9,885 nucleotides of DNA from a virus. Its lineage: Duplodnaviria > Heunggongvirae > Uroviricota > Caudoviricetes. Below, piece by piece: positions 1-4,436 of the stretch. How positions within the stretch are numbered: the stretch's first letter is position 1; each line of letters starts with the position of its first letter. The translations under genes and the position numbers were made by a program. The notes beneath the pieces were generated by a model. It ran no database searches. It saw only the letters and a program-made list of their open reading frames with translations, and was not told the origin of the DNA. The stretch is from IMG/VR virus record IMGVR_UViG_2534681835_000035. One strand, 5' to 3'.

Positions 1-348
1 GCCTGCGGCAACGGCTTTCCGGCTGATGGTCGTACGGACCTTTTTACCCCGGAGAACACCGGCAAGTCCCATAACCGCCATGAGACGTGCCACTGTACAT
101 CTGGCCACCCTGATTCCTTCCCGTAACAACTGACGCCAGACTTTACGCACACCGTACACCTGATGATTTTCATCGTATACGCGCTGTATCTCTCTCTTCA
201 GCCAGTCGTCGTGCTGCGCACGGGCACTGCGTTTATCCGGATGATGTCGCTGTTGCTGACAATGGTAATACGTTGACGGGGCAATATGCAGTTCGCTGCA
301 TACCGGTCCGACCCCGTACTGCTCACGCAGCTTATCCAGCAGTGGCAT
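1..348 (-). CDS. IS3-family transposase OrfB (DDE catalytic subunit), N-terminal part only; 3' end outside window
   Basis: The ATG at 348..346 overlaps the orfA stop (ATGA). Translation [16 protein letters not shown]... continues to position 1 as ...GVLRGKKVRTTISRKAVAAG with no stop, in the -1 frame relative to orfA as expected for IS3-family OrfAB frameshifting. Confidence 0.85.
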   Translation of the reverse strand, partial: MPLLDKLREQYGVGPVCSELHIAPSTYYHCQQQRHHPDKRSARAQHDDWLKREIQRVYDENHQVYGVRKVWRQLLREGIRVARCTVARLMAVMGLAGVLRGKKVRTTISRKAVAAG

Positions 349-674
349 CATTTTTTCCAGAGGCGGTCGAACTCCGCCTTCGCAAAATAAGCGGAAGCCT
401 GGCGAAGGATATCGTTACTGCGGCGCAGTTCACGATTTTCACGTTCCAGCTCTTTCAGACGCTGACGTTCAGCGCTGGTGAGCCCACCATCACCGCCCCC
501 GGTATCCCGCTCATGCTGGCGAACCCAGACACGCAGAGTCTCCGGCGTACAGCCAATCTTTGGGGCAATGGAACAAATTGCCGCCCACTGTGAGTCATAT
601 TCATCCTGACTTTCCAGAACCATACGAATCGCCCGCTGACGGACTTCGGGGGAAAAACGAGTATTTTTAGTCAT
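348..674 (-). CDS. IS3-family transposase OrfA (HTH and leucine-zipper subunit)
   Basis: 108-aa [60 protein letters not shown]...[36 protein letters not shown], recognised as IS629/IS1203-type OrfA. An A-rich slippery run (CTG GAA AAA ATG A) sits at its 3' end, overlapping the orfB ATG. Confidence 0.9.
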
Positions 675-699: not shown

Positions 700-1155
700 T
701 TAGTCTCCAGGATTTCCGGGGCGGTTCAGTTCAGCCATTTTGCGCTTAGTCATCCCCCGCCCCACATAACGCTGACTCAGAACATTGAGCAGCCCGGGAT
801 AACCTGCCAGTACTTCACCAATAACCCTGTCGATTATTAACGCCTCTGAATCGGTACAATGTGCCAGCCAGCTTTTTTGATTGCCGTTGATCATATCCCG
901 CAAAAAAGCCTCAAGTTCAGGTTTGTCCAGACCCGCTTTTTTCATCCTCCGGAGCGCCTCGTTAATTGCCGTTTTTGTCAGCTTTTTAGAGGTCAGTAAT
1001 TGGTTGAACATATTTCCCGTCTTACCGTCGCCAATATACGACCAACGCCCCCACATACGCAGTTTCCCCTGGATCCAGACACTTTCCAGCGTTTTCAGGC
1101 GTAAATGCTCACCGCTTTTGCCTGTAATTTCCGGGTATATCATATTTATGCTCAC
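700..1155 (-). CDS. Putative late-gene antiterminator (Q-like), 3' end disrupted by the IS insertion (last ~9 codons and the stop are IS-derived)
   Basis: 151-aa ORF directly downstream of rusA with an ATGA start/stop overlap, which is the position Q occupies in lambdoid phages. The reading frame crosses the IS terminus at 728/729, so the tail ...LNRPGNPGD and the stop are encoded by the IS inverted repeat. The Q assignment is by position and loose resemblance only, not by a recognised motif. Confidence 0.5.
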
Positions 1156-1523: not shown

Positions 1524-2627
1524 TTACCCGAGCACGCCGGTTGCAAAGGCGTGATCAAGAAAACGAAAAATTAAATCAACCTGGGAACCATGCTTTTCTT
1601 CGAACGCCAGCGGATCCGCATGAAGCTCGTTGTGATGCTCCCGACACAGCGGTAGCGTGAAAATATCGTGGGATTTTGTTCCCATTCCGCCCTGACCATG
1701 ACCAATCAGATGATGAGGATCGTCCGCTGGCTTACCACAACACGCACACGGCTGTGTCTTTACCCAGCGTGTGTATTTCTCATTTACCCAGCGGCGACGT
1801 TTAGGTCGTTTCATGAAGGATTCCGGAGACTCCGGATCAACGGCAATGCTGACCACCGTCTTTTCCTGTGGTGGGTTCTGTTGCTGGTGGGTGTGAGGCG
1901 GTAGCGCAATATTTTTTGTGCGCTGCTTCAGTATGCTGGTGGCGGTCTGTTCTCCCGGTATGATGTCGCTTTCACGGTATACGGAGCGGATTTTTTCCGC
2001 CGGTAATCCCAGAGAGCGACGCGATACTGCCTCAGGTAATGCGTCCACCACCTGATTGCAGACTGCCCACCAGGATAATTCAGCCAGCGATAATTCCCGC
2101 TCCTGCGTGCCATTCATTACATGGCGTATGACGTCAATCATCCAGGCTGTCAGATTTTGTTGAGTAAGTTGCTCAAGTGATTCGGAGGTCTGGTCGCGCA
2201 GCTGGTTGTCGCAGTGCCAGCACAACACCATTGCGCCAGCACCGTAACTGTGAATAACGGTTTCGCTGTGATGATAATCGCCGTGTGGCCACTGGCAGGA
2301 TTTCACGTGACGTAATAACCAGTCAGACAGTGCACCAGCGCCGCCAGCTGCACGAATCACCCGCTCATCGCTGAAAAATGGCAGCAGTGATTTATCTTCC
2401 GCCAGCGGCTGGCGAACAGCAGGAACCGCTCCAGATGGCAGCGCCCGCATGTTTTTCGGTTCCGGCTCCACCAGCACCCTGCCGCGATGAAAAACTGGCA
2501 ATGATTCACGACCGGGCTTAAGGACCACCAGCCCGAGTTCCGGAACCAGAACAGGTCGAAGTAATACCCGCACATTACCTCCAGACGCGCTGACGGTAGC
2601 AGGCATGTGTCCGTGGCAGATGTGCAC
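1524..2627 (-). CDS. YdfU-like (DUF968-like) prophage protein with a C-terminal Cys/His-rich, HNH-like putative metal-binding motif; start codon uncertain
   Basis: 367-codon ORF from GTG 2627 (alternative ATG at 2606). C-terminal segment KTQPCACCGKPADDPHHLIGHGQGGMGTKSHDIFTLPLCREHHNELH has paired Cys and His residues. The gene sits 12 nt upstream of rusA, the same neighbourhood ydfU has next to Q in the Qin prophage. The DUF968 assignment is from memory. Confidence 0.65.
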   Translation of the reverse strand: MHICHGHMPATVSASGGNVRVLLRPVLVPELGLVVLKPGRESLPVFHRGRVLVEPEPKNMRALPSGAVPAVRQPLAEDKSLLPFFSDERVIRAAGGAGALSDWLLRHVKSCQWPHGDYHHSETVIHSYGAGAMVLCWHCDNQLRDQTSESLEQLTQQNLTAWMIDVIRHVMNGTQERELSLAELSWWAVCNQVVDALPEAVSRRSLGLPAEKIRSVYRESDIIPGEQTATSILKQRTKNIALPPHTHQQQNPPQEKTVVSIAVDPESPESFMKRPKRRRWVNEKYTRWVKTQPCACCGKPADDPHHLIGHGQGGMGTKSHDIFTLPLCREHHNELHADPLAFEEKHGSQVDLIFRFLDHAFATGVLG

Positions 2628-2847
2628 GAACAGGAAGATATACAGAAACGGTCCAGGTCAGACGATCAGCGTTCAGACTCCGCTCCACACGGACACCGCG
2701 ACGCAGATACGCCTCTTGAAGCATATCTGCCTCATCGATCGTACAGAACAGATAGTGAAACCAGCCATACTGAGGCGCACGAAAACGCCTCCCCTGCTTA
2801 ATTTCCGGGTCGGCTTCAGAATTGTGGGATTTTATGTGTTGTGTCAT
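2575..2847 (-). CDS. Hypothetical 90-aa protein overlapping the 5' end of the YdfU-like ORF by 53 nt in a different frame
   Basis: ATG at 2847 with a GGAG Shine-Dalgarno 6 nt upstream. The first ~60 residues look protein-like (MTQHIKSHNSEADPEIKQGRRFRAPQYGWFHYLFCTIDEADMLQEAYLRRG...); the last ~25 residues look like an out-of-frame readthrough. It occupies the position of rem in Qin, but no sequence match is claimed. Confidence 0.45.
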   Translation of the reverse strand: MTQHIKSHNSEADPEIKQGRRFRAPQYGWFHYLFCTIDEADMLQEAYLRRGVRVERSLNADRLTWTVSVYLPVRAHLPRTHACYRQRVWR

Positions 2848-2921
2848 CGGATTCTCCGGTGACAGCAGGTGTCAGTTGTTCAGGCTGACTGCGCGAATTG
2901 TAAGGCAATACGCCGGAATGT

Positions 2922-2950
2922 ACAAACAGAAAACCCGTCAGTAAGACGGG
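2922..2950 (-). terminator. Rho-independent terminator downstream of the YgiW-like gene
   Basis: On the minus strand a CCCGTC-TTACT-GACGGG hairpin (plus 2934..2950) is followed by TTTTCTGTTTGT, about 20 nt after the TAA stop at 2969. Confidence 0.55.
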
Positions 2951-2968
2951 CTTAACAAGCAGGGGCGG

Positions 2969-3313
2969 TTACTTTAATAATTTCAGTGCCTTTACATCAA
3001 CTTCAACACTGCTCAGGTCTTTATCAATTTCACCCTCAATTCTTACTTTGTCTTTCGGAGAAACATTCTGCCCGGCCCATACGCTGTCATCAATATCCGT
3101 GACAATTGTCCCGCTATTGTCACGAAACTCATAACGTTCATCACCCACTTTTTTAACGATGCTCCCTTCAAGGATAACCCATGCATCATCCTTCAGTTCT
3201 TTTGCCTGCGCTACTGTTGAACGCTCTGCTTCTGGCCCCTGGAAACCACCCTGCTGTGCAAAAGCGCCAAAAGACACACCGGAAATAAGTGCTGCAATCA
3301 ATACCTTTTTCAT
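2969..3313 (-). CDS. YgiW/YdeI (BOF) family periplasmic OB-fold protein with signal peptide
   Basis: 114 aa, MKKVLIAALISGVSFGAFA-QQGGFQGP..., with a signal peptide and AFA-QQ cleavage site, and the family pattern GGFQGP...W..L.G.IV......Y.F.D.SGTI..DID...W.G..V.PKD.V.I.GE.DKD..SVE.DVK. AGAGGA Shine-Dalgarno 7 nt before the ATG. Confidence 0.85.
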   Translation of the reverse strand: MKKVLIAALISGVSFGAFAQQGGFQGPEAERSTVAQAKELKDDAWVILEGSIVKKVGDERYEFRDNSGTIVTDIDDSVWAGQNVSPKDKVRIEGEIDKDLSSVEVDVKALKLLK

Positions 3314-3432
3314 TCATAGTCCTCTTTCAGAGATGAACATTCAAACAGCATTTTCAGTATGGTAAAGCGCGGGTGCGTTGAGGATGCCTGACACATCAGA
3401 GGTGGCGGGAGATTACTCCCCCGCCTGGTCTC

Positions 3433-3588
3433 TTACTTCTCAGATTCGTAGTCTACGAAGACAGCGACCTCCGTCTGACCGGTTCGGATTCGCACCTCGC
3501 AGAGGTCTTTCCTCGTTACCAGTGCCGTCACTATGACGGTTAAACAGATGACGATCAGGGCGATTAACATCGCCTTTTGCTGCTTCAT
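3433..3588 (-). CDS. hokD: Hok/Gef-family type I toxin (HokD/RelF-like small membrane peptide)
   Basis: 51 aa, MKQQKAMLIALIVICLTVIVTALVTRKDLCEVRIRTGQTEVAVFVDYESEK, near-identical to my recollection of RelF/HokD and carrying the Hok signature (LT/VTRK.LCE..IR.G..EVA.F..YES). AAGGAG Shine-Dalgarno 9 nt upstream of ATG 3588. The ORF track extends the same frame to an upstream ATG at 3645. Confidence 0.85.
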   Translation of the reverse strand: MKQQKAMLIALIVICLTVIVTALVTRKDLCEVRIRTGQTEVAVFVDYESEK

Positions 3589-3878
3589 AGCCTGCTTCTC
3601 CTTGCCTTTCGGCACGTAAGAGGCTAACCTACATGTGTTCAGCATGGATTGAGCCTCAGATTAATGTTAAGCGTCTTGCAGGACGCGTAATGTTAACTGG
3701 GGCTTTTCTCTATCTGCCGTTGGTGTTCATGCCCGAGGCAGATAGCCTCAAGCACCCGCTGCAATTCTACTTAACTATCCTTTTCCCGCAAACCGTTTTT
3801 ATCCCCAGCGGCAAATCGAATACTCCACCAGCGCCACCGCCATCGCAATTCCTACCGTTGTGAATGCTTCAGGCCAGG
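3589..3878 (-). promoter_or_regulatory. Long hok leader: candidate promoter, upstream in-frame mok-like start, and likely site of an antisense Sok-like RNA on the plus strand
   Basis: 290 bp separate the upstream gene from hok. Candidate minus-strand promoter TTGCGG-N16-TAGAAT (plus 3791..3764). Stable inverted repeats in the leader (TATCTGCC 3711..3718 with GGCAGATA 3737..3744; GCGTC 3671..3675 with GACGC 3682..3686) and an imperfect hairpin just 3' of hok (3404..3425). By analogy with hok/sok loci, an antisense RNA would be transcribed rightward from about 3600..3700, but its ends are not determined. Confidence 0.35.
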
Positions 3879-4436
3879 TCATTGATTCACCTCCTGCGGC
3901 GGTTCTGGTAGCGACATCCAGTGGGTTGCTTGCCTAAGATCATTACCCGGACTAACTGCTATACCTCCGCGCCGGAACGTGCCTCCGAGATAGCGTGCGG
4001 AATATATTAATGGCCCAGCCTCGCTATCGATATTCATCGAAATAAGCACGTTCTGGCTCTTTTCAGGCATTCGCTCAGTACAGCTTATCCAGCCATCCAG
4101 AGTTATCGGAGATCTGGTTGACGTTTCCGAGATTTCCCGAAAATTGTTGGTTGACGAATTCTTATTTTCCCGAAAGTTTCCGGCCTGAAGCATGGCGACG
4201 CGGCAGGCGTTCCAGCCATCAGCATATGTTTTAGTTACACCGTCGAGATGGCAGGTAAGCAAATCCATTTCATCAGGCACTACCATTGCTATCGGCTCTG
4301 CTTCCAGTGATGCCAGCGCGATACGAAACACATTAGCCAGCAGGCTGTCTGAAGACTTGTTATCGTGCGCCGAGTCGCTCAGGAAGCCTGTGATGTATGA
4401 TTTAATCTCCGCGCGTTCTCTGGTAATAGTGCTCAT
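3879..4436 (-). CDS. DUF551-domain prophage protein
   Basis: 185 aa; C-terminal GWISCTERMPEKSQNVLI...YSARYLGG...THWMSLPEPP matches the DUF551 signature as I recall it (W...ERLPE ... THWMPLPEPP). AAGGA Shine-Dalgarno 9 nt upstream; start is 1 nt from the preceding gene's stop. Confidence 0.8.
   Translation of the reverse strand: MSTITRERAEIKSYITGFLSDSAHDNKSSDSLLANVFRIALASLEAEPIAMVVPDEMDLLTCHLDGVTKTYADGWNACRVAMLQAGNFRENKNSSTNNFREISETSTRSPITLDGWISCTERMPEKSQNVLISMNIDSEAGPLIYSARYLGGTFRRGGIAVSPGNDLRQATHWMSLPEPPQEVNQ

Follow-up and report, generated by a model that had tools for sequence, protein, structure and literature searches.

How does a gene of a host stress-tolerance family come to be carried by a prophage, and from which promoter is it read there? 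The question is raised by a stretch of 9,885 nucleotides of a virus of the Caudoviricetes (IMG/VR record IMGVR_UViG_2534681835_000035; "the window" hereafter means this whole stretch), which is 100% identical to lambdoid prophages of Escherichia coli O111 (strains 8E and 11128). An initial annotation, made from the letters of the DNA, had picked out positions 2922..3313 as a secreted protein of the YgiW/YdeI family with an oligonucleotide/oligosaccharide-binding (OB) fold, carried as a prophage moron with its own terminator. It named no strand; the gene lies on the minus strand, and the interval turns out to be exactly its coding sequence (2969..3313, ATG start, 114 amino acids; called the BOF gene here after its Pfam domain) plus the terminator that follows. 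The product is identical to RefSeq WP_000756596.1 and UniRef A0A4P8BAV1_ECO57. As judged from sequence comparison, the accessory unit at this locus is a hok/sok–BOF–terminator cassette in which BOF is the distal gene. What is new here is the strict linkage of the gene to hok, the boundaries of the cassette, and the absence of a terminator or a convincing promoter between hok and BOF. Our overall reading, which we hold with somewhat more confidence than doubt, is that the BOF protein would be an exported OB-fold cargo of the hok/sok cassette, expressed by read-through from the hok promoter and serving tolerance to envelope stress.

Where does this cassette begin and end? A BLAST comparison with phage 933W gave one ungapped block of 976 bp (2922..3897, 97% identity), and the homology stops exactly at 2922, the last U of the terminator tail. 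A more divergent variant in a public assembly (L003), whose BOF protein is 82% identical and whose Hok is 100% identical to those of the window, has the same nin-type context, and the stretch common to both runs from about 3801 to 2922, beginning just upstream of the hok promoter. The minimal hok/sok–BOF–terminator cassette is accordingly placed at 2922..3801 (minus strand), reaching 3897 in the 933W comparison. When positions 880..1500 of L003 are aligned with 3588..2969 of the window, the hok half shows about 99% and the BOF half about 88% DNA identity, the change-over coinciding with the end of the fold-back element (fbi) of the hok mRNA. Such a mosaic suggests recombination at the fbi boundary. 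Is the BOF gene ever found by itself? Among 5,426 complete genomes, the same 550 hold at least 80% of a query made of hok and BOF and at least 80% of a query made of BOF only; thus the BOF gene was never seen without hok. Junction-specific queries placed the cassette in the nin-type context in 518 genomes and in the 933W-type context in 109 genomes. A more distant homologue of the protein (P0010, 58% identical) is neither beside hok nor in a prophage, and the linkage to hok is therefore specific to the prophage clade. An empty site was also sought: the two 300-nt flanks of the cassette, joined together, were never adjacent in any of the 5,426 genomes, so that the exact insertion event cannot be reconstructed. 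The patchy presence expected of a moron is nevertheless seen in two ways, since the Qin prophage of K-12 holds rem in the same slot between hok and the DUF968 gene, and since the cassette occupies two positions in different phages. The idea of a prophage moron with its own terminator has therefore to be kept in part: the accessory presence and the conserved terminator are real, while the BOF gene does not stand alone, being the distal gene of a hok/sok cassette without an evident promoter of its own.

The proximal part of the cassette has all the parts of a hok/mok/sok unit. The body of the hok mRNA (3371..3757, minus strand) was delimited by Rfam RF01794, Pfam HOK_GEF and a minimum free energy (MFE) fold. 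RF01794, which describes the hok 5' leader together with the sok region, matches 3583..3757 with 113.5 bits (cutoff 59), and HOK_GEF matches mok (3433..3645, minus strand) with 79.8 bits; hok itself occupies 3433..3588 on the same strand. The MFE fold of 3757..3370 joins by base pairing the tac element at the 5' end (3746..3757) and the fbi element at the 3' end (3371..3383), a closure typical of hok mRNAs. The antisense RNA sok is placed on the plus strand at 3637..3707, coordinates carried over from the sokW annotation of 933W via the ungapped 976-bp match, and a promoter-like sequence for it, TTGCCT-17-TAACCT, is present at about 3602. The putative hok promoter, TTGCGG-16-TAGAAT (3764..3791, minus strand, predicted start at about 3757), is invariant in the three cassette variants compared. 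Just past the hok stop codon, in the 3' untranslated region, there is a hairpin at 3404..3425 (minus strand; about 1045..1066 in L003), which carries two compensatory changes between variants (GGCGGGGGAG/CTCCCGCC versus the GGCGAGGGAG/CTCCCTCGCC type) and has no U-tract; these features fit a stop for 3' exonucleases rather than a terminator. Toxin and antitoxin activities have been shown for the 98.5%-identical hokW-sokW, whose hokW mRNA is detected before induction in lysogens of phage Sp5 and which promotes Sp5 phage release, deletion resulting in a two-fold drop (PMC8621323). It is also seen that the hokW-sokW::km deletion used in Sp5 ends just past the hok stop codon, directly upstream of the BOF gene and with no terminator between them (window 3314..3432; L002 5393..5511, 933W). 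Polarity was uncontrolled in that study, and the reported drop in phage release could partly be a polar effect on the BOF gene.

How, then, is the BOF gene transcribed and translated? The strong Shine-Dalgarno sequence noticed in the initial annotation is indeed there: AAGAGGA at 3320..3326 (minus strand), whose GAGG core ends 7 nt before the ATG and which is kept both in the divergent L003 and in 933W. A second ATG 4 nt upstream of the start was rejected, being out of frame, too near the Shine-Dalgarno sequence and missing in L003. The downstream rho-independent terminator could likewise be located, as an intrinsic terminator at 2922..2953 (minus strand) that reads AAGCCCGUC-UUACU-GACGGGUUU and then UCUGUUUGU. 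Its hairpin of 9 bp (2931..2953) begins sixteen bases past the BOF stop codon and is followed by UUUUCUGUUUGU down to 2922. A 61-nt stretch containing it (2915..2975) folds at -16.1 kcal/mol (z = -3.0 versus dinucleotide shuffles), and the terminator is kept in all three cassette variants compared. It is the sole terminator-like site in a scan of 2400..4000, and none was found in that scan between hok and the BOF gene. The 57-nt spacer from the end of fbi to the BOF start codon (3314..3370, minus strand) shows the lowest conservation within the cassette, with just the Shine-Dalgarno sequence kept, and no promoter in it passes a consensus scan. The best candidate in the spacer, TTTACC-16-TGtTTGAAT (3339..3366), has a score of 8.0 with a matrix of approximate frequencies; this score is within the range of shuffled sequences (median 6.3, 95th percentile 10.6), and the candidate is not kept in L003. 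In sum, a single well-conserved promoter region opens the cassette upstream, and a single terminator closes it downstream. From this arrangement, together with the presence of hokW mRNA before induction, we infer that BOF is reached by read-through from the hok promoter, and this is most likely the main way of BOF expression in lysogens. In a lysogen, transcription would then begin at the constitutive hok promoter, reach the BOF gene last and end at the single terminator, and after induction the gene would also lie in the path of rightward early transcription of the PR type.

Published data allow a look at expression in the absence of induction. In O157:H7 strain EDL933 the corresponding locus is Z1498, whose protein entry, A0A4P8BAV1_ECO57, is identical in sequence to the window protein; an alternative assignment by the offset between L-numbers and Z-numbers, which would give Z1497, was dropped in favour of this match of UniProt identifiers. 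Strand-specific RNA-seq of uninduced EDL933 in eleven conditions (PMC4048457, Table S4) gives Z1498, in reads per kilobase per million mapped reads (RPKM), 207 in LB, 129 in LB at pH 9, 26 in LB at pH 4, 457 in LB at 15 °C, 183 in LB with nitrite, 80 in LB with antibiotics, 100 on solid LB, 201 in minimal medium, 37 in spinach juice, 46 on radish sprouts and 0 in faeces. The gene is thus at 26-457 RPKM in ten of the eleven conditions, and in LB the flanking 933W genes Z1495 and Z1500 are at 14 and 59 RPKM, respectively (PMC4048457). The protein has been found by mass spectrometry in EDL933 supernatants, in a smaller amount in a type II secretion mutant (PMC12962677). Both the RNA and the protein data come from EDL933, not from the O111 copy. 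With this transcript and this identical protein, the earlier supposition that the gene may be expressed from the lysogen finds support in published data.

What kind of protein is made? It matches Pfam BOF (PF04076) over residues 19-111 with E = 1.9e-33 and 115.1 bits (cutoff 25.8), NCBIfam NF033674, named 'NirD/YgiW/YdeI family stress tolerance protein', with 136.8 bits (cutoff 35), and TIGR00156 with 112.3 bits (cutoff 108.15). It misses the cutoff of the YdeI equivalog NF007471 by far (64.8 bits versus 179), and it is therefore a member of the family and not an orthologue of YdeI. The only solved relative found by sequence is E. coli YgiW (1NNX; E = 3.5e-29, 50 of 94 aligned residues identical, 53%). 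An AlphaFold2 model made with 16 homologues has a predicted local distance difference test (pLDDT) score of about 89-97 over residues 31-114, with five strands in the order of an OB fold (45-55, 60-65, 68-74, 89-98 and 103-113). Its top structural match is again 1NNX, with a template modelling (TM) score of 0.91 normalised to the target, followed by the OB folds of RPA, Ten1 and RMI. The family and the fold claimed in the initial annotation are thus agreed upon by the profile scores, the 1NNX match and the model. The family motifs, whose loss on proper alignment had been named as an outcome to look for, survive: when the window protein is aligned with 15 homologues of 50-82% identity, all 26 invariant and 13 nearly invariant columns of the 16 sequences are present in it, including the motifs WV.L.G, Y.FRD..G, ID...W.G, KV..EGE and DV. 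It is to be noted that the prophage clade (the window protein and two homologues, P0004 and P0005) lacks, at residues 20-33 of the window protein, the first GGF-repeat linker of 13-19 residues that the chromosomal relatives have, with 114 amino acids versus 127-134, and has KDL at residues 98-100 where all the other aligned members have KDW.

The word "secreted" needs a small correction. Residues 1-19 (3257..3313, minus strand) form a predicted Sec signal peptide for signal peptidase I, MKK / VLIAALISGVSFGAF / AFA with cleavage before QQ; in the hydrophobicity profile, MKK is followed by a hydrophobic core of 15 residues and an AxA-type site, AFA-Q. SignalP 'SPI' has been reported for the identical protein (PMC12962677), and there is no cysteine in the N-terminus, so that the protein is not a lipoprotein. 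The export signal thus stands, while the predicted destination is the periplasm, and "exported to the periplasm" is the better wording. The predicted mature protein is of about 10.5 kDa and acidic, with an isoelectric point of about 4.6. Is it under selection? The ratio of non-synonymous to synonymous change (dN/dS) is 0.22 versus the 82%-identical L003 variant (21 non-synonymous and 22 synonymous differences) and 0.04 versus the 933W copy. Such low values mean that the protein has been kept by purifying selection, even with the Q-like gene of this prophage broken.

The characterized relatives give the protein its best reading. YgiW, YdeI and SipA are periplasmic, and their ligands are OmpF for YgiW, OmpD for YdeI, and OmpA together with cationic peptides for SipA; mutants of the family show sensitivity to H2O2, cadmium or antimicrobial peptides, and cross-complementation is seen between ygiW and sipA (PMC6370654). 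By analogy, the prophage protein is best read as a prophage-supplied periplasmic factor for tolerance to envelope stress or antimicrobial peptides. It would be exported by Sec to the periplasm, would bind there outer-membrane proteins and/or cationic peptides as YgiW, YdeI and SipA do, and would in this way make the lysogen better able to withstand envelope stress of the kind that antimicrobial peptides, peroxide and cadmium impose.

Several points weigh against this picture, and they have to be taken together with the other ways in which the gene might be expressed and used. A phenotype has been reported for no prophage copy of BOF, and the short linker and the change from W to L suggest that it may have another ligand or partner than YgiW has. 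The equation of Z1498 with the BOF gene was made by the match of UniProt accessions, not by coordinates, and either two near-identical copies or a minority of spontaneously induced cells could be the source of the RNA-seq reads. If a long hok–BOF transcript is made, it must be compatible with a processing of the hok mRNA that depends on the 3' end. Finally, the step from the hok promoter to a BOF transcript is one that we infer, and the weak promoter of the spacer, TTTACC-16-TGtTTGAAT, may serve instead, which is the main alternative. If so, the BOF gene would be a stand-alone moron, transcribed independently up to its own terminator, and its linkage to hok a historical accident. We regard this as possible though unlikely. 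The candidate does score about like the hok and sok promoters in the crude matrix, the RPKM value of Z1498 is above those of its neighbour genes, and the two identities in L003 (about 99% for hok and about 88% for BOF) tell that the two halves can recombine separately at the fbi boundary; a score inside the shuffle range, a sequence not conserved in L003, a consensus scan that finds no promoter in the spacer, 550 genomes in which BOF never goes without hok, and cassette boundaries that enclose both genes all speak against a stand-alone moron.

Even if the hok promoter is the source, might the protein work for the phage rather than for the lysogen? It could be made mainly after induction, as a product of the early rightward operon in this context, and act with Hok on the envelope, in the timing of lysis or the release of progeny. 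The gene is co-oriented with cro, O, P, the nin-type genes and Q, the scan of 2400..4000 shows no terminator upstream of it, it is strictly linked to hok, hokW-sokW promotes the release of Sp5 (PMC8621323), and the deletion behind that result lies, judging by its primers, just upstream of the BOF gene, where it could exert polarity. We nevertheless think such a function improbable: the known roles of the family are in host stress tolerance (PMC6370654), the transcript and the protein are seen without induction, the cassette of 933W-type phages is near attR and outside the early operon, and in the window prophage it is intact though IS1203 cuts the Q-like gene. A much less probable use would be superinfection exclusion or defence, in which periplasmic BOF blocks an incoming phage via its outer-membrane receptor or a DNA-entry protein. 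Accessory slots of prophages often hold exclusion genes, and the prophage clade is distinct in its shortened linker and its W-to-L change. Binding to OmpF, OmpD or OmpA by members of the family (PMC6370654) would also suit this role; however, no PADLOC defence model matches BOF, PHROG 1230 has no assigned function, and exclusion activity is reported for no BOF protein in the literature examined. The same PADLOC search gave no matches for orf90, mok/hok or the DUF551 gene, and PHROG 1230 (phrog_1230) covers the whole BOF protein. It is hardly credible, at last, that the gene is a decaying passenger without function in a defective prophage. The prophage is damaged, with IS1203 in its Q-like gene, but the dN/dS values are 0.04-0.22, about 550 genomes have an intact ORF (open reading frame), Shine-Dalgarno sequence, signal peptide and terminator, BOF RNA and protein are detected in EDL933, and frequent frameshifts or stops were not seen among the annotated matches. 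Joint action with Hok in lysis or release, exclusion and a passenger gene are all ranked below stress tolerance, the passenger being disfavoured by selection and expression.

Does the cassette matter for disease? In an Irish case-control genome-wide association study (GWAS) of E. coli that produce Shiga toxin (STEC), 'ygiW_2' and the 'mokC-like' group_5720 are a synergistic pair associated with haemolytic uraemic syndrome (HUS; adjusted odds ratio about 5.5), and the association holds after adjustment for stx subtype; the study treats the two as separate genes and does not remark that a ygiW-like gene and a mok/hok gene stand side by side in one prophage cassette (PMC11950266). Probably they are the two genes of the cassette. 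Also among the matches of that study are ydfU_1 (DUF968) and ybcQ_1 (Q), which are similar nin-region neighbours (PMC11950266). A bolder idea, which we consider doubtful, is that hok/sok and BOF form a functional operon, in which BOF made from the hok transcript buffers the basal activity of Hok or acts with Hok at induction, and that the cassette thereby raises the fitness or virulence of the pathogen; if true, it would explain the joint association of ygiW_2 and the mokC-like group with HUS. As for the favoured stress-tolerance reading, if the prophage copy protects as its family does, it would be a lysogenic-conversion factor aiding survival in the gut, and this would give a mechanistic reading of the HUS association. 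The gene sits, after all, in prophages of the dangerous E. coli O157, O26, O111, O103, O121 and O145. In any case it is best studied together with hok/sok, since deletions of hokW-sokW may affect BOF and since the two GWAS matches are probably one locus.

As a sequence feature the BOF gene is ordinary, and it is already known, its annotation going back more than two decades. The record of 933W from 1999 lists it as L0136, noted as 'similar to hypothetical YgiW and YdeI proteins', and the RefSeq label of the ORF (WP_000756596.1) is 'NirD/YgiW/YdeI family stress tolerance protein'. It is found in about 570 of 5,426 complete E. coli genomes (about 10%) and in 45 records of Shiga toxin (Stx) phages; serogroups O157, O145, O111, O103, O26 and O121 are seen among the matches listed, most of which are at 100% DNA identity. 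Literature searches for L0136, for YgiW in lysogens or phages and for stress-tolerance OB folds in prophages gave nothing particular to the prophage gene, and the main text and supplements of an omics paper on ciprofloxacin and enterohaemorrhagic E. coli mention neither the prophage hok nor the BOF gene.

The surroundings in the window agree with a lambdoid early region. In the window the BOF gene lies in the rightward early operon, whose cro-like, O, P and nin-type genes and Q are likewise on the minus strand. Next to it stand hok/mok (3433..3645) and the sok RNA region upstream, and downstream follow orf90, the DUF968 gene, RusA and the Q-like gene; Pfam and neighbour annotation thus bear out the location between hok and the nin genes that had been given at first, with genes of the nin type. 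The BOF terminator and the DUF968 gene are separated by a 90-aa ORF, orf90 (2575..2847, minus strand). Pfam and NCBIfam gave no match for it, its sole match being phrog_1212 (unknown function), and its assignment as a Rem homologue was rejected, BLASTP showing no similarity. On the other side, the DUF551 gene (3879..4436, minus strand) has its 3' end, with the stop at 3879, overlapping the upstream portion of the 933W-shared block (to 3897). Further short matches to L0139/L0140 of 933W are at 3886..3923 and 4063..4112, in the region of the DUF551 gene. At the far end of the window, the IS3-family insertion sequence IS1203 (1..~727), with its transposase orfA (348..674) and its ALIL frameshift pseudoknot (277..393), is inserted in a DUF1133/Q-like antiterminator gene (700..1155, minus strand). 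Compared with the intact copy in O157:H7 PV15-279 (L001 6740..7294), about the last 46 codons of the Q-like gene are gone through IS1203, and late-gene switch-on by this O111 prophage is probably disabled.

How does the locus compare with known systems? The closest are the Stx phages themselves. L0136 of 933W, H0152 of VT2-Sakai (Sp5) and Z1498 of EDL933 are the same gene with one amino acid difference, V78I, and hokW/sokW is again the neighbour, the terminator is the same, and DNA identity over the cassette is 97-98.5%; what differs is the position, since the cassette of 933W and Sp5 is near attR after the tail-fibre region while that of the window is in the nin-type region, from the DUF551 gene to orf90 and DUF968. 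Qin of K-12 has the same backbone as the window, with hokD 93.8% identical over 3361..3602 and ydfU (DUF968) 83% over 1524..2585. Its slot after hok, however, is taken by rem, a gene dissimilar to both BOF and orf90, hokD is without the mok/sok 5' region, and the hokD homology breaks at 3361, 10 nt past the hok fold-back element. Among cellular proteins, E. coli YgiW (1NNX; VisP in Salmonella) shares with the BOF protein the OB fold, the Sec signal, the conserved columns and 53% identity over the domain. The window protein is, however, not its chromosomal orthologue, as it is without the duplicated GGF-GP linker, has KDL and not KDW, and is not encoded beside qseBC; the nearest non-prophage relatives are 58-67% identical and form a separate clade of Enterobacterales. 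YdeI (OmdA) of Salmonella and E. coli and SipA of Vibrio cholerae are periplasmic stress-tolerance proteins of the same family as the window protein, and their genes are under stress-sensing two-component systems, whereas no such region is visible at the BOF gene of the window, which has only the hok/sok unit upstream.

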